Source of the DNA: Candidatus Methylomirabilota bacterium
Lineage (GTDB): Bacteria > Methylomirabilota > Methylomirabilia > Rokubacteriales > CSP1-6
Direction: 5' to 3'
Assembly (NCBI GenBank): GCA_046726415.1
Contig: JBKPAK010000213.1
Location: forward strand, 1-64,000
Length of the DNA stretch: 64,000 bases
Part shown: positions 51,749-63,999 of the stretch, piece after piece
Numbering within the stretch: position 1 is the first letter of the stretch
Layout of the letters: every line of letters begins with the position of its first letter
The notes under the pieces: model-generated
The model's input: only the letters and a program-made list of their open reading frames with translations
Databases searched by the model: none
What the model was told of the DNA's origin: nothing
Translations under genes and position numbers: made by a program

Positions 51749-52414
51749 TCAGTCGAGTCTCTCGGCCTCGCTGAGCCGGCGCAACGCATCCACCTCCTGT
51801 TCGAGCACCTGAATGCGGTCGAGGAGGTGTTCAATGGCCTTGGCCACCGGATCTGGAAGATCGGTCTGGTTCAGGTCGATGCCCGACGTCACCCGTTGAC
51901 CGTCGCGGTAGGTCACCTTGCCCGGAACTCCGACGACCACGGCGTTCGCTGGCACGTCCCGTACCACCACCGAACCGGCGCCAATGCGACTATTGTCACC
52001 CACCGTGATGGCGCCGAGCACCGTGGCCCCGGCACCCACGACCACGTTGTTGCCCAAGGTCGGGTGTCGCTTCCCCCGCTCGAGGCTGGTACCTCCCAAC
52101 GTCACGCCGTGGAGCAGGCTGACGTTCTCCCCCACCTCGGCCGTCTCGCCGATCACGACGCCCATGCCGTGATCGATGAAGAGGCCAGGCCCCAGGCGTG
52201 CCGCCGGATGGATCTCGATCCCCGTCAGGAATCGCGCCAGATGCGAGGTGAAGCGCGCCAGCCCGAGCCATCCGCCCGTCCACAGGCGATGAGCCAGACG
52301 GTGGAAGGTGAGGACGTGGACGCCCGGATAGCAGAGCAGCACTTCGAGGCGGGATCGCGCGGCGGGATCCCGCTCCAGGACGACCTGAATGTCGCGACGG
52401 AGGGAGTCAAACAT
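51749..52414 (-). CDS. cysE: serine O-acetyltransferase
   Basis: [35 protein letters not shown]. Confidence 0.96.
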
Positions 52415-52787
52415 GGCTTTCCTGGCGCCTCATGTAGTCTCGGGCGGCGGCCCGCAGGGCCTCTGCCACCACATCGGCCGCGTGCTTGCGGTCCTCCGGG
52501 AGGCCGTCCAGGGCCTCCTCGATGGCCACGGCCGATAGATGAGCGAGCGCCTCCACCGTGTATCCCGCGACCAGCTCGCTGGCCGCACTGGCCGCGGCGA
52601 TGGTTGGACCGCACCCGTAAGTCTGAAACCGCACTTCCGAGAGGCGGCCGTCGCGCACGCGGAGGAAGAAGCGCGCGAGATCGCCGCAGCCCTCGTATTC
52701 CTGCTGCCCCACGGCATCGGGCCCGCGCATGAGCCCAGCGTTGCGGGGGTGCAGGAAATGATCGACCAAGGTGGGGCTGTACCTCAT
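52407..52787 (-). CDS. IscU/NifU-N-like protein with only two of three scaffold cysteines
   Basis: YS..VDHF.HPRN.G, GCGD, TYGCG present; LPEDRKHAA replaces LPPVKIHCS. Confidence 0.88.
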
Positions 52788-53938
52788 ACGGCGGCCGGCA
52801 GGGCCTCCCGCAACTTGGCGACCAGAGGTTCCGCGCAGTCGATGACGTACTCGATATCCTCGGCCGCCGTGGTTCGGCCGAGGGAGCACCGCACCGCTCC
52901 GATGGCCCAGTCGAGCGGCACGCCCATGGCCTGGAGCACGTACGAGGGTTCGACGTTGCCCGAGGTGCACGCGGAGCCAGCCGACACGGCGACGCCCTTG
53001 AGATCGAGCCCCAAGACGATCGACTCGGACTCCACGTGACGGAAGCTGACGTTGGCAGTCCCGGGCAGCCGCTCGACCGGATGCCCGTTCAGCCGTACCT
53101 CGGGGACGCGGGCACGGAGGCCCTCCCAGAGCCGGTCGCGCAGCGCGCGCAACCGCTCTGTTTCACTGGTCATATCGCGGGCGCGGACCTCGACCGCCTT
53201 GCCAAAACCCGCGATGCCCGCCACGTTCTCGGTGCCGGCTCGCCGGCGACGCTCGTGCTCGCCACCGTGCTGAACCGAGACCATCTTCGTGCCGCGCCGG
53301 ATGTAGAGAGCGGCGACGCCTTTGGGCCCGTAAATCTTGTGCGCAGAGCACGACAACACGTCGATGCCCCAGCCGTCGAGGTCGATGGGGATCTTGGCGA
53401 ACGTCTGCACGGCGTCCACGTGGAAGGGGACGCCGTGATTTCGGGCGAGAACGCCGATCGCCGCGACGGGCTGGATCGTCCCCACCTCGCTGTTGGCGTG
53501 CATCACGCTGATGGCGATGGTGTCGGGCCGGAGCGCTCGCTTGACGTCGTCGGGATCGATCATCCCGTAGCCGTCCACCGGCAGATATGTCACCTCGAAC
53601 CCGGCCGCCTCCAGCGCTTGACAGGTGCGCAGAACCGCGTGGTGTTCAACGCGCGAGGTGATTAGGTGGCCCTTGCCCTTGGCCCCGGCCAGCCCTTTGA
53701 CGGCAAGGTTGTCGGATTCCGTTCCGCCCGACGTGAAGACGATCTCTTCTGGACGCGCGCCCAGGAAGCGGGCCACCCGTTCGCGGGCGGTCTCCAGCCC
53801 TTCTCGCGCTTCGCGCCCGAAGGCGTGCACGCTCGACGGGTTGCCGAAGCGTTCCATCAAGTACGGCAGCATCTCGGCCGCGACCTCCGGATGGACGGGC
53901 GTCGATGCGTTGTGATCCAAGTACACTCGACGGCTCAT
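52784..53938 (-). CDS. cysteine desulfurase (NifS/IscS group I, catalytically intact)
   Basis: YLDHNAST, SGGTESDN, EHHAV, HVDAVQ, SAHKIYGPKG, SAGSACTS. Confidence 0.95.
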   Translation of the reverse strand: MSRRVYLDHNASTPVHPEVAAEMLPYLMERFGNPSSVHAFGREAREGLETARERVARFLGARPEEIVFTSGGTESDNLAVKGLAGAKGKGHLITSRVEHHAVLRTCQALEAAGFEVTYLPVDGYGMIDPDDVKRALRPDTIAISVMHANSEVGTIQPVAAIGVLARNHGVPFHVDAVQTFAKIPIDLDGWGIDVLSCSAHKIYGPKGVAALYIRRGTKMVSVQHGGEHERRRRAGTENVAGIAGFGKAVEVRARDMTSETERLRALRDRLWEGLRARVPEVRLNGHPVERLPGTANVSFRHVESESIVLGLDLKGVAVSAGSACTSGNVEPSYVLQAMGVPLDWAIGAVRCSLGRTTAAEDIEYVIDCAEPLVAKLREALPAAV

Positions 53939-53942
53939 GAGC

Positions 53943-53971
53943 TTGCTCTCCCTCGATCCCGATGCTAGGCT
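53943..53971. promoter_or_regulatory. overlapping divergent promoter candidates (dsrEFH-like on +, desulfurase on -)
   Basis: + strand TTGCTC-17 nt-TAGGCT with extended TG; the overlapping - strand reads TAGCAT upstream of a GAGGGAG RBS. Confidence 0.5.
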
Positions 53972-53979
53972 CGGCCCGG

Positions 53980-54303
53980 ATGGATCTCGCCCGGAAAAAG
54001 TTCGGCCTCCTGCTCTCGACCGGACCTGAGCACGGAAATCTCGACACCGCCATCGGCCTCACCGCGGCGGCTCTGGGTCGCGGGGCGACCGTCTACCTCT
54101 ACCTCATCGACGACGGCGTGGCGACTCTGTCCGACCCTCGCCTTCGCGCGCTGCCTGCGCGCGGAGTGAAGCTCTTCGCGTGCGCCTACGGTTGCCAGAA
54201 GCGCCGGATCCCGCTCGAAGACAGTGACGAGATCACCTACTGCGGTCTGGTGGTGCTGACGGATCTCATCAACGGCACCGACCGCTTCGTCGCGCTCAAC
54301 TGA
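53980..54303 (+). CDS. DsrE/TusD-like sulfurtransferase
   Basis: VYLYLIDDGV, LFACAYGCQKR (Cys at the TusD/DsrE active position). Confidence 0.85.
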   Translation: MDLARKKFGLLLSTGPEHGNLDTAIGLTAAALGRGATVYLYLIDDGVATLSDPRLRALPARGVKLFACAYGCQKRRIPLEDSDEITYCGLVVLTDLINGTDRFVALN

Positions 54304-54336
54304 AACAGCACCGACCGCTTCGTCGCGCTCAACTGA
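54271..54336 (+). repeat. 33-bp tandem duplication of the dsrE-like 3' end including the stop
   Basis: aacggcaccgaccgcttcgtcgcgctcaactga / aacagcaccgaccgcttcgtcgcgctcaactga (32/33 identical). Confidence 0.95.
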
Positions 54337-54355
54337 GCGCCCTCGCGGCGCGCGC

Positions 54356-54712
54356 GTGACCGACCACGCCCCCGTGCTCGTGCTGATCTCCGCCGATCCA
54401 CGAGAGTCGCATCGCGCCAACGAGGCCCTGCGCATCGGGCTCGGAATCGTCTCGGGCGAAAACGAGGTGGTCTTCGTCCTCAGCGGCGCGGGGGTCCACC
54501 TCCTCGACGCCGACACCGACGACCTCGTCGATGGCGACGACATCGCGCGTTTTCGCGCCAGTCTCAAGGCCCTCGATGTCTCCTTCCACGTCGAATCGGA
54601 ATCCCGACCATCCGATCCCGACTGGAACGCCGCCAACCACCCGGTGGTCGTCCAGCCGGGGAGCGCCATCGTCGACCTCCTCCGGACCAGCCGCCGGGCG
54701 CTGATCTTCTGA
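54356..54712 (+). CDS. DsrF/TusC-like protein
   Basis: DP..SHRANEALRIGLG, VFVLSGAGV; no Cys. Confidence 0.75.
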   Translation: MTDHAPVLVLISADPRESHRANEALRIGLGIVSGENEVVFVLSGAGVHLLDADTDDLVDGDDIARFRASLKALDVSFHVESESRPSDPDWNAANHPVVVQPGSAIVDLLRTSRRALIF

Positions 54713-54933
54713 TGGCGTCCGTTCTTCATCTTCTGGGCCACAACAATCCTGCGCGCGCTCTGGTGGTGATGGAGGGCCAGGTGGCGGCCGGCGACACGGT
54801 GACGGTCGCCGTGGTGGGACCGCGGGCCCCGGCGCTCCCGCCCGGGGTGACCGCGTTCCGTGTGCCGGGGGACAAGTCGTGGGAGGAGCTCCTGGACGTT
54901 ATCTTCGGGGCCGACCAGGTGCTTAGCTGGTGA
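54712..54933 (+). CDS. DsrH/TusB-like small protein
   Basis: VLHLL N-terminus, WEELLDVIF..DQVLSW C-terminus; TGATG coupling to the preceding gene. Confidence 0.65.
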   Translation: MASVLHLLGHNNPARALVVMEGQVAAGDTVTVAVVGPRAPALPPGVTAFRVPGDKSWEELLDVIFGADQVLSW

Positions 54934-55039: not shown

Positions 55040-55240
55040 CTAGCGGTTCCGATACTCGTCGAGCCAAGCCATCTGGATCGACTCCAGGAGCTTTTCGTTC
55101 GATCCCTTCGGATCATCGGAGAACTCGGGCAGTTCCGTCACCCAGCGGTGGAGGTCCGTGAAGCGCACGGTGACCGGATCCAGTTCGGGAAAGCGCTCGG
55201 CCAGGGCGATGCCGATGTCTTCCGCGTCGCGCCACGTCAC
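55040..55240 (-). CDS. iscX: Fe-S assembly protein IscX
   Basis: TWRDAEDIGIAL, DP..VRFTDLHRWV..LPEFSDDP..SNEKLLE.I..AW. Confidence 0.93.
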   Translation of the reverse strand: MTWRDAEDIGIALAERFPELDPVTVRFTDLHRWVTELPEFSDDPKGSNEKLLESIQMAWLDEYRNR

Positions 55241-55560
55241 TTGGGAATCTCCACCGTCACGTTGCCTCGCACCACGGCCTGACAGCCGAGGCGCGAGTGG
55301 ATGGTCAGCCCTTCGGCCATGTCCAGCCGATCCTCCTCGTCGGGCTCCATCTCCGAAAGGTTCTCCTCGCCACTCCGGACGATCACATGGCAGGTGGTGC
55401 ACGCGCAGCTGCCGCCGCAGTTGTGCTCGAGGTGGATGTCACGGGCGAGGGCGATGTCGAGCAGCGAGCCCGGCTTGCCATGGTCGGCCAGCGGGTACTT
55501 GTCGTCATCGACCTCGACGGTCACGTTGGCCGGGAGAAACGTCACCTTGTACACTGCCAT
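55237..55560 (-). CDS. fdx: ISC-type [2Fe-2S] ferredoxin
   Basis: HNCGGSCACTTCH, SRLGCQ. Confidence 0.93.
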   Translation of the reverse strand: MAVYKVTFLPANVTVEVDDDKYPLADHGKPGSLLDIALARDIHLEHNCGGSCACTTCHVIVRSGEENLSEMEPDEEDRLDMAEGLTIHSRLGCQAVVRGNVTVEIPK

Positions 55561-57392
55561 CACGATGACTCCATGACCTCGTCGGCCCGTCGGCTGCCCA
55601 GCGCCCCCTTGAGGGCCGCATCCATCATGGTCTCCGCCAAGCGCGTCGTCACCTGGTTCAGCGCGGTGGTCTTATCGCGGATGAGATCGCGGTCGGCCCC
55701 CCCACGCGCCCGGCGCAGCTCATCAAGCGCACCCGCGATCGCCTCGCGCTCCGGCGCCGTGGCCAGGGTGCCCGCCTGACGGAGAGCGCGCTCGACGTGT
55801 GTCATCACCGTGTCCGCCTCGGTGCGCGCCTCGATCAGGAGGCGCGCCTCCACATCGGCTTCGGCGTAGGTGAAGGACTCCTCCACCATGCGCGCGACGT
55901 CGACCTCCGAGAGCCCGTACGTCGGGCGCACCTCGATGGCGGCCGCCTCGCCCGTGCGCAGCTCGCGGGCCGTGACTTGGAGGATGCCGTTGGCGTCGAT
56001 GAGAAACGTCATCTCGATCTTCGGCATGCCCGCCGGCATGGGGTCGATTCCTCGCAGCTCGAACCGGGCCAGCGAACGGCAGTCCTTGGCCAGCTCGCGC
56101 TCTCCTTGCACGACGTGGAGGTCGACCACGGTCTGCCCGTCTACCGAGGTCGTGAACAGCTCCTTGGCGCTGGTGGGGATCGTGGTATTGCGCGGGATCA
56201 GCACGCTGACAATGCCGCCCAGCGTCTCGATGCCGAGCGAGAGCGGCGTCACGTCCAGGAGCAACAGATGATCGATTCCACCGGCCAGGATGTGGGCCTG
56301 GACGGCAGCCCCCAGCGCCACCACCTCGTCGGGATTGATCTGACTATGAGGCGCCCGGCCAAACAGCTCCTCTACGCGCCGCCGCACCATGGGCACCCGT
56401 GTGGAGCCCCCCACCAGCACGACCTCGTCGATCTCCGCCGGCTCGATTCCCGCATCGGCGAGGGCCGCTCGGCATGGACCGAGCGTTCGCATCACCAGCG
56501 GCTCGATGAGCCCCTCCAGCTCGGCCCGGGTCAGCTCCCGGTGATACACGAACGTCTCGAAGGGAATGGTCACCGACGTCCGATCCAGTGCCGACAGTCG
56601 GACTTTGGCGGCCTCGGCGGCCAGGCGCAGTTCCTGAACTGACTCCGCGTCCCCGGCGAGGTCGACGCCGTGCCGGGCGCGGATCTCGTCGAGAAAGACG
56701 GTTTGCAGGGCCCGGTCGAGGTCGTCGCCTCCCAGGTGCGTGTCGCCATTGGTCGCCAGCACCTCGAAGATTCCGTCTTTGACGCGGAGGATCGAGATGT
56801 CGAACGTCCCGCCCCCGAGGTCGTACACGGCGATCAGACCATGGGAGAGCCGCTGGAGGCCGTAGGCGAGCGATGCCGCCGTTGGCTCGTTGACGATGCG
56901 AACCACGTCCAAGCCGGCGATGCGGCCGGCATCGCGCGTGGCCTGGCGTTGGCTGTCGTTGAAGTACGCGGGCACCGTCACCACGGCGTGCTCGGCAGGC
57001 TCGCCGAGGTGCCTCGCCGCGCGGTCCTTGAGGGCTCTCAGAATCACGGCCGAGACCTCGGGCGGCGTCACCGCTCGATTTCCGACGACCAGCCGAACCA
57101 GGCCCTCCCCGGGGACCACCGTGAACGGGAAGTACTGCAGCTCCTCGCGCACGTCGTCGACACCGCGGCCCATGAACCGCTTGACCGAATAGACAGTGTG
57201 ACCAGCCCGATGCACCAGCTCCCGCTTCGCCGCATCTCCGACCAGGATGCCATCGGGCGTGAATGACACCACCGACGGAAGTAGCGGCCGCCCGTCGGCA
57301 TCGGGAATGACCCGGGGCAGGCCCGTGGCCTCGTCGACGTAGGCCACCAAGCTGTTGGTGGTTCCCAGATCAATGCCGATGATGCGCGACAT
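55560..57392 (-). CDS. hscA: Fe-S assembly chaperone HscA (Hsp70)
   Basis: GIDLGTTNS, TVPAYF, NEPTAA, DLGGGTFD, PTYGL; located in the isc operon. Confidence 0.92.
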   Translation of the reverse strand: MSRIIGIDLGTTNSLVAYVDEATGLPRVIPDADGRPLLPSVVSFTPDGILVGDAAKRELVHRAGHTVYSVKRFMGRGVDDVREELQYFPFTVVPGEGLVRLVVGNRAVTPPEVSAVILRALKDRAARHLGEPAEHAVVTVPAYFNDSQRQATRDAGRIAGLDVVRIVNEPTAASLAYGLQRLSHGLIAVYDLGGGTFDISILRVKDGIFEVLATNGDTHLGGDDLDRALQTVFLDEIRARHGVDLAGDAESVQELRLAAEAAKVRLSALDRTSVTIPFETFVYHRELTRAELEGLIEPLVMRTLGPCRAALADAGIEPAEIDEVVLVGGSTRVPMVRRRVEELFGRAPHSQINPDEVVALGAAVQAHILAGGIDHLLLLDVTPLSLGIETLGGIVSVLIPRNTTIPTSAKELFTTSVDGQTVVDLHVVQGERELAKDCRSLARFELRGIDPMPAGMPKIEMTFLIDANGILQVTARELRTGEAAAIEVRPTYGLSEVDVARMVEESFTYAEADVEARLLIEARTEADTVMTHVERALRQAGTLATAPEREAIAGALDELRRARGGADRDLIRDKTTALNQVTTRLAETMMDAALKGALGSRRADEVMESS

Positions 57393-57978
57393 GTGTCTGC
57401 CGTCCCTCGTCCAGGACTTGAGTGAGGTCATCGATCACTGTCCGCAGGTAGGTGCGCGTCGCCAATGTTTCCTTGAGGGCGGCGAGGGCCCGAGGGCGTT
57501 CGCCAGGAGCCGAGATGTCCCAGGCCTCCGACAAGGGCCCTCGCAGACGTCCCTCCTCCGCGCGATACCGGATCTCGAGCTGCTCGCGTCGCTCTTGCAG
57601 AGCGGCGCGTCCGGTTGCGTCCAGGCCGCCCGCGCGGGCCTCCTGGAGCGCCTCCTGGATCTCGAACATTTCCGCCAGCAGCCCCGCGGGCGGCTTCGGC
57701 CTTGCCGCTCCCGCGTCCTCGATCTCCCGCCCCTCCAGGAGCCGCACGAGATATTCGATTCGCCGGATGGGATCGCGGAGGGCCCGATAGGCGGCATTGA
57801 CCCGAGCCGACGTCTTCAGAATCTGCGCCTGCTCCTCGGGCGACGCCCCCTGGTGGAAGTCAGGGTGGTAGCGGCGCGACAACTCGTAGAAGTTTCGCTG
57901 AAGCGCGGTCTCGTCCACCATCAACCGCCGCGGTAGTCCAAAGACCTCGAAGTAGTCCATGCCCTTTTCGTCGACCAT
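57370..57978 (-). CDS. hscB: Fe-S co-chaperone HscB
   Basis: DYFEVFGL, YHPD, VNAAYRALRDP..RIEYL. Confidence 0.92.
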   Translation of the reverse strand: MVDEKGMDYFEVFGLPRRLMVDETALQRNFYELSRRYHPDFHQGASPEEQAQILKTSARVNAAYRALRDPIRRIEYLVRLLEGREIEDAGAARPKPPAGLLAEMFEIQEALQEARAGGLDATGRAALQERREQLEIRYRAEEGRLRGPLSEAWDISAPGERPRALAALKETLATRTYLRTVIDDLTQVLDEGRQTHVAHHRH

Positions 57979-57987
57979 CAGAAATGG

Positions 57988-58015
57988 GAACGGGCCCGTG
58001 GGGCCGGGCCCGTTC
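57988..58015. other. perfect 11-bp stem-loop between iscA and hscB
   Basis: gaacgggcccg-tggggc-cgggcccgttc. Confidence 0.7.
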
Positions 58016-58036
58016 GCGCGGCGCGCTGTCGCCCCG

Positions 58037-58366
58037 CTACGCTGAGAACGACGTCCCGCAGCCGCAGCTCGACTTCGCGCTGGGATTGACAAAGGTGAAG
58101 CCGCCCGTCAGCCCCTGCGTCACGTAGTCGAGGGTCGTCCCGTTCAGGTAGAGATAGCTCTTGCGGTCGACCACGACCTTCACCCCGTCGATCTCGAACT
58201 CCTTGTCGTGGGGCCCGATCTCGGAGTCGAACTCCAGGGCGTACGACAAGCCGGAACAGCCGCCTCCCTTCACGCCCATGCGGAGGAAAACGGTATCGGG
58301 CAGGTTCTGCGACTGTTTGAGGCTCTTCAGCTGCTTCACGGCAGCCTCCGAGAGCGCCACGGGCAT
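58037..58366 (-). CDS. iscA: A-type Fe-S carrier IscA
   Basis: GGGCSGLSY, NP....CGCGTSF. Confidence 0.95.
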   Translation of the reverse strand: MPVALSEAAVKQLKSLKQSQNLPDTVFLRMGVKGGGCSGLSYALEFDSEIGPHDKEFEIDGVKVVVDRKSYLYLNGTTLDYVTQGLTGGFTFVNPSAKSSCGCGTSFSA

Positions 58367-58392: not shown

Positions 58393-58809
58393 CTAAGATG
58401 CGACCCCCGCCTCGGTCGTTGCCGGTTTCGCGTGCTTCTCTCGGTAGTCGGTCAGGGCGGCCTTGATGGCGTCCTCGGCAAGGACCGAGCAGTGAATCTT
58501 GACGGGCGGCAGCTTCAGCTCATTCACGATGTCCGTGTTCTTGATCTTGCCGGCCTCATCGACGGTCTTACCCTTCAGCCACTCGGTGGCCAAGCTCGAG
58601 GAGGCGATGGCGCTGCCACAGCCGAACGTCTTGAACTTGGCGTCTTCGATGACGCCCGTGTCGAGATTGACCTTGATCTGCAGCTTCATGACGTCGCCGC
58701 ACTCAGGCGCGCCCACCAGCCCGGTACCCACGCCCGGAGCGTCCTTGGTGAAGGACCCGACGTTGCGGGGGTTGTTGTAGTGATCAACGACCTTCTCGCT
58801 ATAGGCCAT
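58393..58809 (-). CDS. iscU: Fe-S scaffold IscU
   Basis: NPRNVG, GAPECGD, FGCGSAIASSS, LPPVKIHCS. Confidence 0.97.
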   Translation of the reverse strand: MAYSEKVVDHYNNPRNVGSFTKDAPGVGTGLVGAPECGDVMKLQIKVNLDTGVIEDAKFKTFGCGSAIASSSLATEWLKGKTVDEAGKIKNTDIVNELKLPPVKIHCSVLAEDAIKAALTDYREKHAKPATTEAGVAS

Positions 58810-58823
58810 GACTCGCGCCTCCC

Positions 58824-60050
58824 TTACTCAGCTTTCCAATGAATCGACTTCAGATCAACGCCCTCCTTGGCCAGCTCGTAGAGGGGCGACATTTCGCGCA
58901 GCCGCTGCACGACCTCGATCGTCCGCTTGGCCACGTAGTCGATCTCCTCGTCGGTGTTGAACCGGTGGAGGCTGAAGCGGATCGAGGAGTGGGCCAGCTC
59001 GGTGCTCGCCCCCAGGGCCGCGATGACATAGGAAGGCTCCAAGGTCGAGGATGTGCAGGCCGACCCCGACGACAGCGCCGTCTCTTTGTTGAGCCCCATG
59101 AGCACCGACTCCCCTTCGACATAGGCGAAGGAGATGTTCAGGTTGTGGGGCAACCGTCGCTCCGGGTGCCCGTTCAGAAAGGCCTCTTCCACGTTGGACA
59201 GGATGCAATCTTGTAGTCTGTCGCGCAGCGCGGCCAACCGCGATCCTTCCGTCGACATGACCTCGCGGCAGATCTCCGCCGCCCGGCCGAATCCGACAAT
59301 CAACGGGACGGGCAGTGTCCCCGAGCGCATCCCGCGCTCGTGACCGCCCCCGTCGATGAGGGGCGCGATGCGCACGCGCGGAGCTTTGCGGCGCACATAG
59401 AGAGCACCGATGCCTTTCGGACCGTACAGCAGATGTCCCGTGCACGACAGGAGGTCGATGCCCATACCCTCGACGCTCACGGGAACTTTGCCAACCGCCT
59501 GGGTGGCATCGGTGTGGAAGATGATCCCCTTCTCTTTGGCCAGCTTCCCGATGGCGGCGATATCCTGGATCGTCCCGATCTCGTTGTTGGCAAACATGAC
59601 CGAGATCAGGATCGTCTTGTCGTTGATCGCCTTGCGAATCTCGTCCACGTCGACCAGGCCGTCGGGTTGAACAGGGACGTAGGTCACCGCCGCCCCGTGT
59701 CGCTCGAGTCGCCGGCACACGTCGAGGCCGGCCCGCTGCTCGATGACCGTGGTGACGATGTGATTGCCCTTCTCCCGGTACATCTCGACCACGCCCTTGA
59801 TAGCGAGGTTGATGGCCTCCGTTCCACCAGAGGTGAAGACGATCTCCTTGGGATCCCGAGCGCCGATGAGCGCCGCGATTTGCTCGCGCGCCCGGTCCAC
59901 CGCGGCTTCGGCCTCCCAGCCGAACGGATGGTTGCGGCTGGCTGGATGGCCGAACTTCTCCGTGAAGTACGGGATCATCGCCTCGACCACCCGCGGGTCA
60001 ACCGGGGTCGTCGACTGCGCGTCCATGAAGAGCGGAAACTTCAGCGCCAT
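58824..60050 (-). CDS. iscS: IscS homolog lacking the PLP lysine (probable pseudo-desulfurase)
   Basis: Full-length IscS with SSGSACTS, RSGT and LREMSPLYE, but TGHLLYGPKG in place of SGHKxYGPKG and EQRAG in place of EHKAV. Confidence 0.9.
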   Translation of the reverse strand: MALKFPLFMDAQSTTPVDPRVVEAMIPYFTEKFGHPASRNHPFGWEAEAAVDRAREQIAALIGARDPKEIVFTSGGTEAINLAIKGVVEMYREKGNHIVTTVIEQRAGLDVCRRLERHGAAVTYVPVQPDGLVDVDEIRKAINDKTILISVMFANNEIGTIQDIAAIGKLAKEKGIIFHTDATQAVGKVPVSVEGMGIDLLSCTGHLLYGPKGIGALYVRRKAPRVRIAPLIDGGGHERGMRSGTLPVPLIVGFGRAAEICREVMSTEGSRLAALRDRLQDCILSNVEEAFLNGHPERRLPHNLNISFAYVEGESVLMGLNKETALSSGSACTSSTLEPSYVIAALGASTELAHSSIRFSLHRFNTDEEIDYVAKRTIEVVQRLREMSPLYELAKEGVDLKSIHWKAE

Positions 60051-60499
60051 CGGTCGGTCTCCCTCACCCCCGCAATCGACAGCATTTCGGGGACGTCGTC
60101 ACTCGTCAACTCGGCCAAACTCATGCTGTCCAGCATCTGCGTCATGGCTGCTTGCAGCTTTTGCACGGGGCGCCGGAGATTGCAATGCGAGAGCTGCGGG
60201 CAATCGCTTGCTTCTTCCATGCAGCTCACGATGCGCACGGGCCCCTCCAGCGCGCGGATCACATCACCCACCGTGATCTGGGTCGGGCGCTGGGCCAGGA
60301 CGTACCCCCCCTTGGGGCCGTTCTGGCCGCTGATCAACCCGCGCTTGGCCAGACGCTGCAGGATCTTCGCGAGCAATTCCGCCGGGATATGAAACTGTTC
60401 GGCAATCCGTTTGGCGCTTACGGGCGCGAGTGCCTCGTGGATGGCGATATAATGAATCGCCATCAATCCGTAGTCGGCGCGCTTGGTAAAGCGGAGCAT
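60041..60499 (-). CDS. iscR: Rrf2 family regulator (IscR-like, three Cys)
   Basis: GPKGGYVL, ALEGP, C-X6-C-X5-C; heads the isc operon. Confidence 0.85.
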   Translation of the reverse strand: MLRFTKRADYGLMAIHYIAIHEALAPVSAKRIAEQFHIPAELLAKILQRLAKRGLISGQNGPKGGYVLAQRPTQITVGDVIRALEGPVRIVSCMEEASDCPQLSHCNLRRPVQKLQAAMTQMLDSMSLAELTSDDVPEMLSIAGVRETDRWR

Positions 60500-60572
60500 T
60501 TATGAACCCTTACGCTCGTCCGTCCACGGTCGCCCAAGCATTTGCCTCGCCCGCGGGGGGGCGCGTATGCCT

Positions 60573-60622
60573 ATCGCCGACCATTTCGGTCGTATTCTTG
60601 CACCGCCACCGACAGGAGTCAA
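60573..60622 (-). promoter_or_regulatory. isc promoter with overlapping IscR/Rrf2-type operator
   Basis: TTGACT-17 nt-AAGAAT on the minus strand; adjacent palindrome CGACC-ATTTC-GGTCG (60578-60592). Confidence 0.65.
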
Positions 60623-60638
60623 CAGGAAAAGGGTTCCC

Positions 60639-61901
60639 ATGACCTCAACTCCCGAGTTCGAGTCGAACCTTTATCACACGGCGATCGCTCAACTCGAGAG
60701 CGTGGCAGGCCGAATCGGGCTGGATTCGGACACCCTCGAGAGGCTCCGCTTGCCGAGGAGGGCTCTCGTCGTTTCCGTCCCCATCCGCATGGATAACGGC
60801 GAGACCCACGTCTTCATGGGCTATCGGGTCCACCACAACACCGCGCTCGGCCCGACGAAGGGGGGCCTCCGCTACGATCTCGAGGTGAACCTGGGTGAGG
60901 TGACGGCACTCGCGATGCTCATGACCTGGAAGTGCGCGCTCATGGGCCTGCCCTACGGCGGCGCCAAGGGCGGCGTCCGCTGCAATCCCAGGACCCTCTC
61001 CCTGCGGGAACGCGAGAATCTGACGCGGCGCTACACCGCCGAGGTGATCCTCCTCATCGGCCCCGATCTCGACATTCCTGCGCCCGACCTCGGCACCGAC
61101 GAGCAAACCATGGCGTGGGTCATGGACACTTACTCGATGACGCAGGGGAGGAGCGTCCCGGGCGTGGTCACGGGAAAGCCCCTGATCGTGGGCGGGTCAG
61201 CCGGTCGAAAAGAAGCGACCGGCCGGGGCATCGTGTATGTGCTCTACCAGGCGGCCAAGCGGCTCGGCCAGGAATTGCGCGGGCGCCGGGTGGCCGTCCA
61301 GGGGTTCGGGAACGTCGGCTCCGTCGCCGCCCGGCTCCTCTGGCGAGACGGGGTGCTGATCACCGGTGTGAGCGACGTCAAGGGAGCCATCTGGAACGAG
61401 CGCGGAATCGATCTGCCCAGCCTGGAGGCTTACATCGCCGAGGCCAGGACCGTCACTGGGTTTCCAGGAGCCGACACCCTCACGAACGCCGAGTTGCTCG
61501 AGCAACCCTGCGACGTGCTGATCCCGGCCGCCGTCGGCTCCCAGATCCACCAAAACAACGCCGCGCGGATCCGCGCCAGCATCGTGGCGGAAGGCGCCAA
61601 CGGACCCACGACCCCCGAGGGGGATCGGATCCTCCGTGAGCGCGGGGTCACCGTGATCCCCGACATCCTCGCCAATGCCGGTGGCGTCGTCGTCTCTTAT
61701 TTCGAGTGGGTCCAGGGACTCCAGTACTATTTCTGGCGCGAGACCGAGATCATCGCGCGGCTGCAAGAAGTGATGACCCGCGCGTTCAACCGCGTGTGGG
61801 CCAGTGCCTCCAAGGAAGGGGTCGATCTTCGCACGGCGGCCCTCATGGAAGGGGTCCGGAGGGTCGCCGAAGCCCACAAGGTGCGCGGACTCTATCCCTG
61901 A
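60639..61901 (+). CDS. Glu/Leu/Phe/Val dehydrogenase (glutamate dehydrogenase-like)
   Basis: GPTKGGLRY, MTWK, GGAKGG, DIPAPD, QGFGNVG, EGANGP, NAGGVVVSYFEW. Confidence 0.94.
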   Translation: MTSTPEFESNLYHTAIAQLESVAGRIGLDSDTLERLRLPRRALVVSVPIRMDNGETHVFMGYRVHHNTALGPTKGGLRYDLEVNLGEVTALAMLMTWKCALMGLPYGGAKGGVRCNPRTLSLRERENLTRRYTAEVILLIGPDLDIPAPDLGTDEQTMAWVMDTYSMTQGRSVPGVVTGKPLIVGGSAGRKEATGRGIVYVLYQAAKRLGQELRGRRVAVQGFGNVGSVAARLLWRDGVLITGVSDVKGAIWNERGIDLPSLEAYIAEARTVTGFPGADTLTNAELLEQPCDVLIPAAVGSQIHQNNAARIRASIVAEGANGPTTPEGDRILRERGVTVIPDILANAGGVVVSYFEWVQGLQYYFWRETEIIARLQEVMTRAFNRVWASASKEGVDLRTAALMEGVRRVAEAHKVRGLYP

Positions 61902-62908
61902 GGCGTGGCCAGGCTCGACGGCAGAGTCGCCCAGGCCTCCCGCAGCGCGGCGGCCGCCGTTTCCGGAGGCAACTCGTTGACGTAGATCCCCCCCACGCGG
62001 TTGATCCGCTCGAGATGCGTAATCACCTCGATGTGCCAGTGATAGTCGTCGTGGATGGTCGCCCAGTCGTCCTTCATCACACGCGACCTTTGATTCGGCG
62101 CGTTGTGGATGACCATCTCGTAGCTGGGATCGCCGAAACTTGCGGCGAGGGCGCGGAAGAGCGCGGACAGGAGGCGGGCGAGATCGCCCACCACCTCCGG
62201 ATCGACGGCGTCCTCGAAGGAACAGCCGTGTCGGCGGGGCATGATCCACGTCTCGAGTGGCGTGCGAGCGGCATAGGGAACGAGGGCGGCGAAGAACCTC
62301 GTGACATGCACCACCCGCTCCTCAGCGGCTAGCTCCTGCCGGAGGATGTCGCAGTAGAGGCACCGGCGCTTGTACTGGTAGTACTCCCGCGCTTCGCGAA
62401 GCTCTCGGCGACCGGCGTCGAACACGATCGGAATGGCCGACACCCGCGAATATGGGTGATGCGGACCCACCCCGGGTTTGCGGTGATGCCGGGAGATGAG
62501 GATGTCGCGGATCTGATCGTCGCGCTTGAGGTCCACGATGCGATCTCGATACATCCACAGGATCGACTCGAGATGCTCGGGAGCCATCGAGGCCAGGGTG
62601 TCGTCGTGACGTGGCGACTCGATGATGAGTTCGCTCGCCCCTCGCGGAGTGATGACGTCGAACATTCCCAATCCTTCCCGCACGAGCTCCCACTCGATGC
62701 GGAAGTAGGGATCGCGCTCGGCCACGACCCGTACGGTCCACCCCGGAGCGTTGGGCGGAGAATCGTCCCCGCGGTAGGCGGCGATCTCTGGACCAGAGAG
62801 GTGCTCGGCGCCGGGACAGTAGAAGCAGTCACTCTCGAGAGGTGGCTTGGACGACGGCCGGACCAGGACCCAGCGTCCACCCGTCGTATCCTTCCTCAGC
62901 TCATCCAC
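61892..62908 (-). CDS. GalT-like (HIT superfamily) protein with degenerate active site
   Basis: ELRKD....WV, CFYCPG, ELIIESPRH, CLYCDI, YHWHIE, PE.AA..LR; HHPYSR in place of HPHSQ. Confidence 0.85.
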   Translation of the reverse strand: MDELRKDTTGGRWVLVRPSSKPPLESDCFYCPGAEHLSGPEIAAYRGDDSPPNAPGWTVRVVAERDPYFRIEWELVREGLGMFDVITPRGASELIIESPRHDDTLASMAPEHLESILWMYRDRIVDLKRDDQIRDILISRHHRKPGVGPHHPYSRVSAIPIVFDAGRRELREAREYYQYKRRCLYCDILRQELAAEERVVHVTRFFAALVPYAARTPLETWIMPRRHGCSFEDAVDPEVVGDLARLLSALFRALAASFGDPSYEMVIHNAPNQRSRVMKDDWATIHDDYHWHIEVITHLERINRVGGIYVNELPPETAAAALREAWATLPSSLATPQG

Positions 62909-62919
62909 CTGCCGTCGAT

Positions 62920-63999
62920 CTACTCCTTGATCTGGCCCTTCAGCTTCCGGAGGTGCTGGCGCGCCACGTCGACCCAGTCCTTCTCCGAAGGAAGCTGCGA
63001 CGCCAGGGCGATGTATTTCTCCCACTGGACGATCGACTCCTTGGGATCGACCTTCTCGTACACCAGGGCGAGATTGTAGAGAGCCCCGGTGTGCTTGGCA
63101 TCGAGCTCGATGACTTTCTTGTATTCGTCGATGGCCTCGCGGTAGAGCCCTTTGTCCTCGTAGACCTCGCCGAGTCCCATTCGCGCTTCAACCGAATGCG
63201 GATCGAGATCGATCGCCTTCTTGTAGGCCGTGACGGACTCGTAGTAGAGGCCTTTCTCACTGTAATAGATCTTTCCGAGACTCATGTAGACCCGCGGATT
63301 GGCGGGGTTGTAGACCAGCGCCTTCTGGTAGGCGCTGACGGCTCCGTCGACTTCCCCCTTCGCGGCCCGCGCGTCGCCCAGCCCCACGTGAGCGTCGGCG
63401 TAGAACGGGCGCAGCTCGATCGCTTTGCCATAAGCCTCCACCGCCTGATCGAACAGCCGGCGAGGCGCGGCCAGAAACAGGTCGCCCAGCGCCTTCATCG
63501 GCTCGGGGTACGTGGGGTCGAGCTGGGCGGCCGCTCGAAACTGGGCGGACGCCTTCCAGCGGTTGTTCAGGGTTTGATGGACGCTCCCCAGGGTGTACTG
63601 CCCCACCGCGAATGTCGGATCTGCCTCGATGGCTTTCGTCAGGAGCTCGACCGCCGCTTCATTGCCTTCCTGGTTCCCCCGCTGGGCCGCCACCACGCCG
63701 CGTGCGAAGAATTCGAACGCCCGAGCGGATTGGGTCGGGCGCGATGCCCTCTCCATGCGGGCGGCCTCAGCGTCGGTCAAGGTGACCTTCAGGGTGCGCG
63801 CATAGGTCACCGGCAGGGTGGCGAGACGCCCGAACGACTCCCCTTCCTGGAGCGTGATGGGTTCCAGAGTGACGAAGTCGGGACCACTAGCCTTCATCTC
63901 GAGCAGACGTGGCTGAATGACAAGGTCGTTGCCTCTACGCGCGATCTGGCCGAAGAGCGCGGCATCTGCCTTGACGGCCTTGGCCGCTTGAACGACTGC
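62920..63999 (-). CDS. tetratricopeptide repeat protein (N-terminus off the right edge)
   Basis: Many TPR motifs (AHVGLGD, VYMSLG, ARMGLG, ALYNLA); the frame is open to the window edge. Confidence 0.88.
   Translation of the reverse strand, partial: AVVQAAKAVKADAALFGQIARRGNDLVIQPRLLEMKASGPDFVTLEPITLQEGESFGRLATLPVTYARTLKVTLTDAEAARMERASRPTQSARAFEFFARGVVAAQRGNQEGNEAAVELLTKAIEADPTFAVGQYTLGSVHQTLNNRWKASAQFRAAAQLDPTYPEPMKALGDLFLAAPRRLFDQAVEAYGKAIELRPFYADAHVGLGDARAAKGEVDGAVSAYQKALVYNPANPRVYMSLGKIYYSEKGLYYESVTAYKKAIDLDPHSVEARMGLGEVYEDKGLYREAIDEYKKVIELDAKHTGALYNLALVYEKVDPKESIVQWEKYIALASQLPSEKDWVDVARQHLRKLKGQIKE

Follow-up and report, generated by a model that had tools for sequence, protein, structure and literature searches.

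The window analysed here, a stretch of 64,000 nucleotides from Candidatus Methylomirabilota bacterium (GenBank assembly GCA_046726415.1, contig JBKPAK010000213.1, positions 1 to 64,000 of the forward strand), carries at 58824..60050 on the minus strand an iscS gene whose product has lost the lysine that binds pyridoxal 5'-phosphate (PLP), and has kept the loop cysteine that carries the persulfide. We use IscS* as a working name for this IscS/NFS1-type protein without PLP lysine. The replacement is found in every orthologue examined from the window's family, and purifying selection on the gene is unchanged after the lysine loss. Our reading, to which as a whole we give a probability of roughly 0.6, is that IscS* is a retained non-catalytic IscS, a partner of the scaffold protein IscU in which Cys332 would serve as cluster ligand or relay thiol, with sulfur arriving from outside. 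The narrower claim, that IscS* is dead as a desulfurase but functional, we regard as highly probable. The original prediction, made from the sequence of the window, had likewise proposed a retained pseudo-enzyme as opposed to a decaying or misread gene; the family-wide fixation, the equal dN/dS ratios and the invariance of Cys332 described below bear it out.

The iscS* gene and its altered active site

The gene and the codons discussed in this section are the following.

58824..60050, minus strand: iscS*, 408 aa, stop-free full-length open reading frame
59430..59432, minus strand: codon 207, CTG, Leu at the position of the Schiff-base lysine Lys206 of E. coli IscS (HMMER alignment)
59736..59738, minus strand: codon 105, CAG, Gln at the position of the PLP-stacking histidine His104 of E. 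coli IscS (HMMER alignment)
59811..59813, minus strand: codon 80, Ile at the position of E. coli Asp79 (HMMER alignment)
59055..59057, minus strand: codon 332, the retained loop cysteine (E. coli Cys328), in SSGSACTS

IscS* matches Pfam Aminotran_5 at 2.9e-80. With the NCBIfam model NF010611 (IscS) it scores 609.2 bits, over the cut-off of 548, and so is annotated automatically as IscS; with TIGR02006 its score of 596.4 bits falls under a stricter cut-off of 643.2. Its best solved relatives, aligned end to end, are E. coli IscS (3e-150; 57% identity along the whole length including the C-terminal tail) and human NFS1 (2e-148; 54%), and the C-terminal extension of IscS/NFS1, which is missing from NifS-type enzymes, is present. 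The HMMER alignment from which residues are equated here, with E. coli IscS chain 1p3w_B, has an E value of 1.1e-149 and reaches residue 402 of the 404-residue chain. An AlphaFold2 model of IscS* built from 34 sequences has a mean predicted local distance difference test (pLDDT) score of 90.8, with values below 50 for the cysteine loop (residues 330-335) and the last three residues; a low score is expected for a mobile loop such as this one. The model superposes on E. coli IscS and human NFS1 with template modelling (TM) scores of 0.92-0.96 and root mean square deviations of 1.2-1.8 Å.

On the minus strand codon 207 reads in its context ctg tcg tgc acg gga cat CTG ctg tac ggt ccg aaa (L-S-C-T-G-H-L-L-Y-G-P-K), and codon 105 reads gtc atc gag CAG cgg gcc ggc (V-I-E-Q-R-A-G). 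Both readings had been made in the original prediction, and the alignment with E. coli IscS confirms their assignment to the PLP lysine and to His104. Its statement that the gene is full length and that SSGSACTS, NNEIG, HTDATQ, RSGT, SIRFS and the C-terminal LREMSPLYE are intact is likewise correct for the 408-aa translation. It had further listed an unusual N-terminus, FMDAQST, among the anomalies of the protein: the motif is real, but it characterises the lineage and has nothing to do with the missing lysine, because lysine-bearing relatives read IFMDS.STTP.

For E. coli IscS, published work describes Lys206 as the carrier of PLP and Cys328 as the carrier of the persulfide (PMC8300815), His104 as sitting above the pyridoxal ring, and Asp79 as hydrogen-bonded to Asp180, thereby tuning the PLP pyridine nitrogen (PMC9978102). 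In PMC9978102 desulfurase activity is abolished in each of the variants H104Q, Q183E and K206A, in agreement with the earlier claim that the lysine and His104 are both needed for desulfuration; the K206A protein retains some capacity for PLP and forms cysteine adducts that become trapped. These engineered variants are single changes, whereas IscS* is a natural double of two of them (H104Q and loss of K206), fixed and preserved by selection, with D79I and V107G in addition. Because it combines two changes that abolish activity in E. coli with the loss of Asp79, IscS* should be inactive as a cysteine desulfurase, a prediction made by analogy with the E. coli mutants. A B6 vitamer may stay bound without a covalent link, as pyridoxamine 5'-phosphate (PMP) does in the inactive IscS of Archaeoglobus fulgidus. 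Compared with E. coli IscS, the differences include K206 to L, H104 to Q, D79 to I, V107 to G and S203 to T; the loop cysteine, D180, Q183, H205, T243, R354 and the basic stretch YVRRK.PRVR are shared.

Distribution of the lysine-less state

The names that sources attach to the closest proteins and loci place the organism in the Rokubacteria (Candidatus Rokuibacteriota / Methylomirabilota). Leucine or methionine stands at position 207 in 92 of the 92 orthologues examined from the window's family within Rokubacteria/Methylomirabilota, and in one sister lineage as well. Every one of the 92 also has Gln105, and Ile80 is found in all of them and in no lysine-bearing orthologue. Among 35 genomes of the same order, 22 (including an unpublished one, G011) combine Leu or Met at 207 with Gln105, Ile80 and Thr204. 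A phylum-wide sample contributed 70 further genomes of the family, three unpublished genomes and two others on the list having been left out; all 70 are lysine-less (51 Leu, 19 Met). The nearest protein clusters from public metagenomes carry Gln105 and Leu207 without exception (120/120), and so a sequencing error, already judged unlikely in the original prediction, is not a credible source of either residue. Named GTDB species genomes of Rokuibacteriota/Methylomirabilota are lysine-less at 14 of 15 loci.

Outside this group the canonical residues prevail: all 30 orthologues that come from other families in the class have His105 and Lys207, and both His and Lys are retained in all 65 loci from Nitrospira, Acidobacteriota and Dormibacterota. 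The best 150 representatives of 50%-identity clusters comprise 142 lysine-bearing proteins, 5 fragments missing the site, 2 members of the present clade and 1 protein of the Archaeoglobus 'SSND' type.

The two altered codons of the window are also covered by independent sequencing runs: a DNA contig of run X1 spans codon 105 and a contig from an RNA library of run X7 spans codon 207, with no listed difference at either. The runs that hold the locus are recorded as soil metagenomes.

Selection on the lysine-less proteins

Ratios of nonsynonymous to synonymous substitution rates (dN/dS) were calculated pairwise by the method of Nei and Gojobori. Among lysine-less genes the median of 210 pairs is 0.139, and among lysine-bearing ones the median of 36 pairs is 0.140: purifying selection has not changed with the loss of the lysine. 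Conservation in the lysine-less proteins is highest at 301-360, the region of the loop cysteine, where 73% of the positions are invariant in 21 sequences; Cys332 itself does not vary in any orthologue examined. The PLP contacts that are left (T77, N156, D181, Q184, T204, H206 and T245) and R358 are the same in each of 21 lysine-less sequences, and the tyrosine of EPSYV is invariant too. With 208 of 408 positions invariant overall, the probability that seven sites drawn at random would all be invariant is 0.0085; this is an approximation, given that the sites are not independent.

Origin of the loss

The codons used at position 207 still record how the lysine was replaced. The 30 full-length orthologues of the dN/dS set have AAG (9), ATG (4), CTG (9), CTC (6) or TTG (2), and the 70 further family members CTG (32), ATG (19), CTC (18) or TTG (1); AAG is the codon of every lysine-bearing orthologue of the order. 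Since lysine-bearing genes have AAG and the others ATG, CTG, CTC or TTG, a stepwise path from AAG through ATG (Met) to CTG, TTG or CTC (Leu) is visible in living orthologues. It had been argued against a sequencing error that the change from Lys to CTG requires at least two base changes; the count of two is correct, but the one-step intermediate ATG survives in 23 of 92 orthologues. Leucine and methionine have interchanged at this position at least 6 times on a tree of 133 rows.

Trees were computed under LG+G4. In a quick tree from all columns the lysine-less proteins form one clade among lysine-bearing Rokubacterial IscS, with a support of 97 in the Shimodaira-Hasegawa-like approximate likelihood ratio test (SH-aLRT). 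When six trait columns are removed, both free tree searches leave the base unresolved and require 2 changes. Constraining the lysine-less proteins to a single clade, with the trait columns removed, altered the log-likelihood (lnL) by +0.6, with a p-value of 0.52 in the approximately unbiased test (p-AU); the same kind of constraint applied to 91 lysine-less rows gave +34.5 lnL over the free quick tree (p-AU 0.84). A single loss of the lysine is the best tree found, as judged from these alignments, and two losses are compatible with them.

Only five sites have non-overlapping residues in the two groups: D80I, V/I108G, K117R, K207L/M and T/A241M. Three of the five (80, 108 and 207) lie at or beside residues of PLP chemistry, and the other two, R117 and M241, are the residues of E. 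coli IscS. A newly recruited lysine that would compensate for the loss was considered and rejected, as none of the five sites gains a lysine. The lysine of GPKG, offered in the original prediction as an example of a possible substitute, does not answer to such a role, because it is conserved in all desulfurases and hence is no new recruit.

A separate observation concerns a genus of the sister family (L033, L036, L037, L118, L119 and L120; six genomes) and the named locus L051, in which the IscS of the isc operon has Lys207, Gln105 and Glu184. These residues reproduce the other engineered pair, H104Q and Q183E with the lysine kept, each member of which abolishes the activity of E. coli IscS (PMC9978102). 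The proteins of this type group together with support 100/100 inside the lysine-bearing part of the tree, and pairwise dN/dS among the three members included (L033, L036 and L037) is 0.06-0.11. By analogy with the E. coli variants, the combination may be a second route to an inactive IscS. Gln105 had been cited as a second altered PLP residue in the protein of the window; the substitution stands, but it is not specific by itself, since the lysine-bearing sister genus has it too. A joint clade of the lysine-less proteins and this genus, as a shared origin of H104Q would imply, is 20 lnL worse and is not rejected (p-AU 0.127).

The isc operon around iscS*

The gene sits between an iscR-like gene and iscU, in an operon with hscBA, fdx and iscX; that this operon is a complete iscRSUA-hscBA-fdx-iscX set had been asserted from the sequence, and the Pfam and NCBIfam matches of the neighbours agree.

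60041..60499, minus strand: iscR-like Rrf2 regulator, Pfam Rrf2 1.1e-36, stop overlapping the iscS* start
58393..58809, minus strand: iscU, canonical scaffold, TIGR01999 216.5 bits, above 192.4
58037..58366, minus strand: iscA, Pfam Fe-S_biosyn 2e-20, TIGR00049 121 bits
57370..57960, minus strand: hscB, Pfam DnaJ 1.4e-7, TIGR00714 56.9 bits, above 46.75; start probable
55560..57431, minus strand: hscA, Pfam HSP70 2.1e-201
55237..55563, minus strand: fdx, [2Fe-2S] ferredoxin, Pfam Fer2 1.1e-10
55040..55240, minus strand: iscX, TIGR03412 104.5 bits, above 40.4; domain at residues 56-117 of a 120-aa open reading frame; start probable

The Rrf2 regulator scores 119.7 bits with the NCBIfam model rrf2_super and 76 bits, under the cut-off, with the IscR model; the ferredoxin scores 90.5 bits with TIGR02007 (fdx_isc), under the cut-off of 132. 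Two starts were shortened with respect to the longest open reading frame. That of hscB (57370-58092) overlaps iscA, and its start is probably the methionine codon at 57960 because the J domain begins at residue 46; that of iscX (55040-55402) overlaps fdx, and its start is probably the GTG at 55240, which overlaps the fdx stop (GTGA). In IscU the ligands are conserved, C37 and D39 in 29 of 29 relatives and C64, H106 and C107 in 28 of 28. A comparison of IscU between the two groups gave no fixed difference in the ordered core that follows the lysine loss, position 87 excepted, and the ligands are unchanged. A CyaY/frataxin gene was not found in the genome of the window, which is 98% complete.

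The NifS module and other sources of sulfur

A second, canonical desulfurase lies 5-6 kb downstream of iscS* in a module that DsrE-like genes separate from the isc operon.

53962..54933, plus strand: region of three small DsrE-like genes between iscX and nifS, divergent from nifS
53962-54303, plus strand: DsrE-family protein, 113 aa, Pfam DsrE 26.1 bits (above 22.7), with invariant C74, C78 and C94
54356-54712, plus strand: DsrE/F-like protein, 118 aa, Cys-free, Pfam DsrE 18.4 bits, below the cut-off
54712-54933, plus strand: 73-aa protein with a DsrE/F/H-like predicted fold, without Pfam match, model pLDDT 93.8
52784..53938, minus strand: nifS-like canonical desulfurase, 384 aa, with VEHHAV, SAHKIYGPKG and GSAC, 48% identical to IscS*
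52407..52787, minus strand: nifU-like N-domain protein, Pfam NifU_N 1.9e-28
51749..52414, minus strand: cysE, serine O-acetyltransferase, TIGR01172 243.9 bits, above 210.65

The NifS-like protein scores 519.5 bits with TIGR03402 (NifS), slightly under the cut-off of 530.75, and is without C-terminal extension; its HK and GSAC motifs are retained in 12 of 12 orthologues. The NifU-like protein has alanine for the third cluster cysteine ('IHC' of IscU becoming 'KHA') and keeps the first two cysteines and the histidine, and this H-A state occurs in all 10 sequences covering the site (the window and 9 orthologous loci). From their sequences the two systems appear as reciprocally degenerate pairs, a live NifS with an incomplete NifU-like scaffold against a dead IscS* with a complete IscU.

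Of 41 genomes of the order, 37 have the 113-aa DsrE-family gene next to nifS. With the model of the 73-aa protein, a Foldseek search returned nothing at E <= 0.001; of the nine best VIA-align rows, six are DsrE, DsrF, YchN, DsrEFH or TusBCD proteins, with Z of 8.0-8.9 over 72-73 residues, tied with unrelated Rossmann-like rows.

The order iscRS*UA-hscBA-fdx-iscX, three dsrE-like genes, nifS-nifU'-cysE is the same in all 11 named loci that are long enough. A NifS orthologue of at least 71% identity is present in 86 of 93 family genomes (a tally that includes the unpublished G011 and G124). Comparing the tables by hand gave 81 family genomes with both genes; 67 of these carry nifS and iscS* on a single contig at a distance of 2-7 kb, and the other 14 have them on separate contigs. 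At G003:C44 and G091:C21 the distance is about 2-3 kb instead of about 6 kb, which suggests a shortened or rearranged cluster. Since the same NifS and DsrE-like genes are present in lysine-bearing relatives, the second desulfurase predates the lysine loss, and it is probably the pre-existing NifS that made the loss tolerable.

The genome of the window holds, in addition, two lysine-bearing paralogues of type I desulfurases, three type II-like matches and three TusA genes. A SUF cluster on its contig 221 (3881-8207) includes SufB (639 bits), a SufD-like match and a SufS-like gene, so that the iron-sulfur cluster (ISC) system with the dead IscS is not the sole system for Fe-S assembly.

Comparison with known systems

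The housekeeping type I desulfurases of the ISC system, E. coli IscS (PDB 1P3W, 3LVL) and human NFS1 (e.g. 6WI2), are the closest relatives of known structure, and the gene order is that of the E. coli type, iscR-S-U-A-hscB-hscA-fdx-iscX. An inactive IscS without lysine is already on record. PMC7585200, PMC8918507 and PMC13066941 describe A. fulgidus IscS (AfIscS; Lys to Asp) as inactive, with PMP bound and its cysteine ligating a [2Fe-2S] cluster on IscU, and a similar lysine-less IscS1 in M. acetivorans; minimal systems are reported to use sulfide (PMC13066941). Structures of A. fulgidus IscS2 are available as PDB 4EB5, 4EB7 and 4HVK, and that of its D199K variant as 4R5F.

AfIscS2 and M. 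acetivorans IscS1 resemble IscS* in being lysine-less type I homologues with the loop cysteine kept and IscU encoded alongside. AfIscS, however, is a NifS-like protein of 382 aa without C-terminal tail, which has S-S-N-D at the site (His205 to Asn, Lys206 to Asp; 'issndiygpkg') and keeps His104 ('savehmsv'), whereas IscS* has C-T-G-H-L and Gln105, its group having H-L or H-M at the site and neither His104 nor Asp79. The two are 44-46% identical (E 9e-105, against 3e-150 for E. coli IscS). AfIscS and its IscU make up a minimal two-gene system in an anaerobic archaeon; IscS* is encoded in a complete bacterial ISC operon that also has chaperones, ferredoxin and IscX. The trees do not give common descent with AfIscS, because IscS* nests among lysine-bearing ISC-type IscS proteins of its own order. 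By these comparisons the lysine was lost independently, on a different branch, and IscS* would work like AfIscS in another lineage. A literature search turned up no paper that describes an IscS without the lysine, be it from Rokubacteria or from the isc operon of any bacterium, subscription journals and supplements being outside the search; as far as could be searched, the combination is apparently undescribed in print.

The genome of the window also contains a lysine-less copy of the AfIscS type (L005:1383-2525, minus strand, contig 21), with SSNDMYGPPG and LLTISSNDMYGPPGAGA. Among solved structures it matches A. fulgidus IscS2 best (4EB5, 2.4e-100). Its gene follows immediately after a TusA-like gene (L005:2530-2871, minus strand; PF01206, 7e-24) and precedes that of a HAD hydrolase, with no IscU within that locus. 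Selenocysteine in this paralogue was considered and discarded: the flagged TGA is its stop codon when read with table 11.

Proposed role of IscS* and alternative readings

These observations can be assembled into a mechanism. With the chemistry of K206, H104 and D79 gone, IscS* would no longer make persulfide from cysteine, and its fold would still be that of an IscS/NFS1 dimer subunit. The cysteine of the mobile loop and the C-terminal tail are retained, and so is the remainder of the pocket, where a B6 vitamer probably sits without a covalent bond. IscS* would remain a partner of IscU, and presumably also of Fdx and IscX, whose genes are kept; Cys332 would then either ligate the cluster or, as a relay thiol, accept persulfide sulfur that another enzyme has made. 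The syntenic canonical NifS would be the likeliest donor, together with the NifU-like protein with two cysteines, CysE and the DsrE-like carriers. The steps of binding and transfer are inferred from conservation, synteny and analogy.

Several considerations weigh against this assignment. The function of IscS* is a prediction from sequence, and the strict conservation of D181, Q184, H206 and R358 also fits a remaining PLP chemistry. Evidence of expression is a weak hint, as the contigs from RNA libraries are of low depth, cover only parts of iscS* (codon 207 among them) and could derive from DNA carry-over. Relatives in the order that still have the lysine possess the NifS module and the DsrE-like genes to the same extent, and for this reason the presence of these genes is permissive rather than specific. 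Because the genome has other possible sources of sulfur (the SufS-like gene and the two lysine-bearing type I paralogues), NifS is favoured as donor by synteny only. Finally, we know of no reaction in which persulfide passes from one desulfurase to another.

The relay version of the proposal can be elaborated into a split ISC system, common to a whole family of widespread soil bacteria, in which the module of NifS, NifU-like protein, CysE and DsrE-like proteins feeds persulfide to the dead IscS, and the latter, as adaptor and relay thiol, presents the sulfur to IscU under the control of Fdx, IscX and HscBA; the sister genus would have come to the same end by H104Q and Q183E. We put this elaboration forward tentatively, as a conjecture less probable than not.

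Somewhat less probable still is a pure scaffold of the Archaeoglobus type, with IscS* holding IscU, Cys332 supplying a fourth ligand to the nascent [2Fe-2S] cluster and free sulfide (from assimilatory sulfate reduction, for example) as the source of sulfur, so that no persulfide would ever form on Cys332. This is the model proposed for the only lysine-less IscS that has been studied (PMC8918507 and PMC7585200), and the reported use of sulfide by minimal systems (PMC13066941) agrees with it. The invariance of Cys332 and of the IscU ligands is what it would lead one to expect. The operon, however, keeps fdx, which would be less needed with sulfide, the accepted role of Fdx in the ISC system being the reduction of persulfide sulfur. 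Furthermore, IscS* is of the full ISC/NFS1 type and not of the minimal type; the sites of the soil metagenomes, unlike the habitat of a sulfate reducer, are presumably poor in sulfide; and genes for a desulfurase, a serine acetyltransferase and sulfur carrier-like proteins stand in tight synteny.

We consider it improbable that IscS* is one half of a heterodimer with the lysine-bearing NifS-like protein or another type I paralogue, contributing the docking surfaces for IscU, Fdx and IscX and the C-terminal tail, with the persulfide made at the one active site of the pair. IscS* and NifS are both of type I, have one fold, are 48% identical and are syntenic, and the absence of a C-terminal extension from the 384-aa NifS would give the IscS* half something to add. 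T245 of RSGT, retained in 21 of 21 lysine-less sequences, corresponds to a threonine that in E. coli IscS presumably contacts the PLP phosphate of the other subunit. On the other hand, no cysteine desulfurase heterodimer of this kind is known to us, and the pairing would have to be new in the family because the lysine-bearing relatives have the same NifS.

That IscS* is still an enzyme, using non-covalent PLP and another base for cysteine desulfuration or for a different PLP reaction, seems very unlikely. The invariance of the seven remaining PLP contacts, of R358 and of the tyrosine of EPSYV speaks for it, as do the binding of some PLP and the formation of cysteine adducts by E. coli K206A; yet K206A and H104Q are each inactive (both points from PMC9978102), IscS* has both positions and D79 changed, no lysine has been gained at clade-specific sites, and the GPKG lysine is common to all desulfurases. 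An artefact of sequencing or assembly, or a pseudogene on its way out, can be ruled out for practical purposes by the same state in 92 genomes and 120 metagenome clusters, the intact frame, a dN/dS of 0.14, and the coverage of the codon in independent runs without listed difference.

Retention of IscS* as a non-catalytic partner of IscU bears on a general question. IscS/NFS1 is both the enzyme that produces sulfur and a docking hub for IscU, ferredoxin, frataxin/IscX and TusA, and in model organisms the two roles are inseparable without killing the system. In the lysine-less Rokubacteria, an abundant soil lineage, the enzyme appears to be dead and the hub to have been kept over long evolutionary time in an otherwise complete ISC operon. 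IscS* may thus offer a direct route to the contribution that IscS makes to cluster assembly apart from catalysis, and permits one to ask if persulfide can reach IscS from outside; should the split ISC system exist, it would be a natural separation of the catalytic from the docking and regulatory functions of IscS/NFS1. There is also a practical consequence. Because lysine-less proteins satisfy the NCBIfam model for IscS and receive the label 'IscS subfamily cysteine desulfurase', metabolic reconstructions of Rokubacteria assign to these proteins an activity that they almost certainly do not have.

Genes upstream of the operon

Three genes upstream of iscR (window 60483-63897) have no apparent link to IscS*: a divergent glutamate dehydrogenase (60483-61901, plus strand), a GalT-like nucleotidyltransferase (61892-63025, minus strand) and a TPR-repeat protein (62920-63897, minus strand), the last labelled by eye from its sequence.

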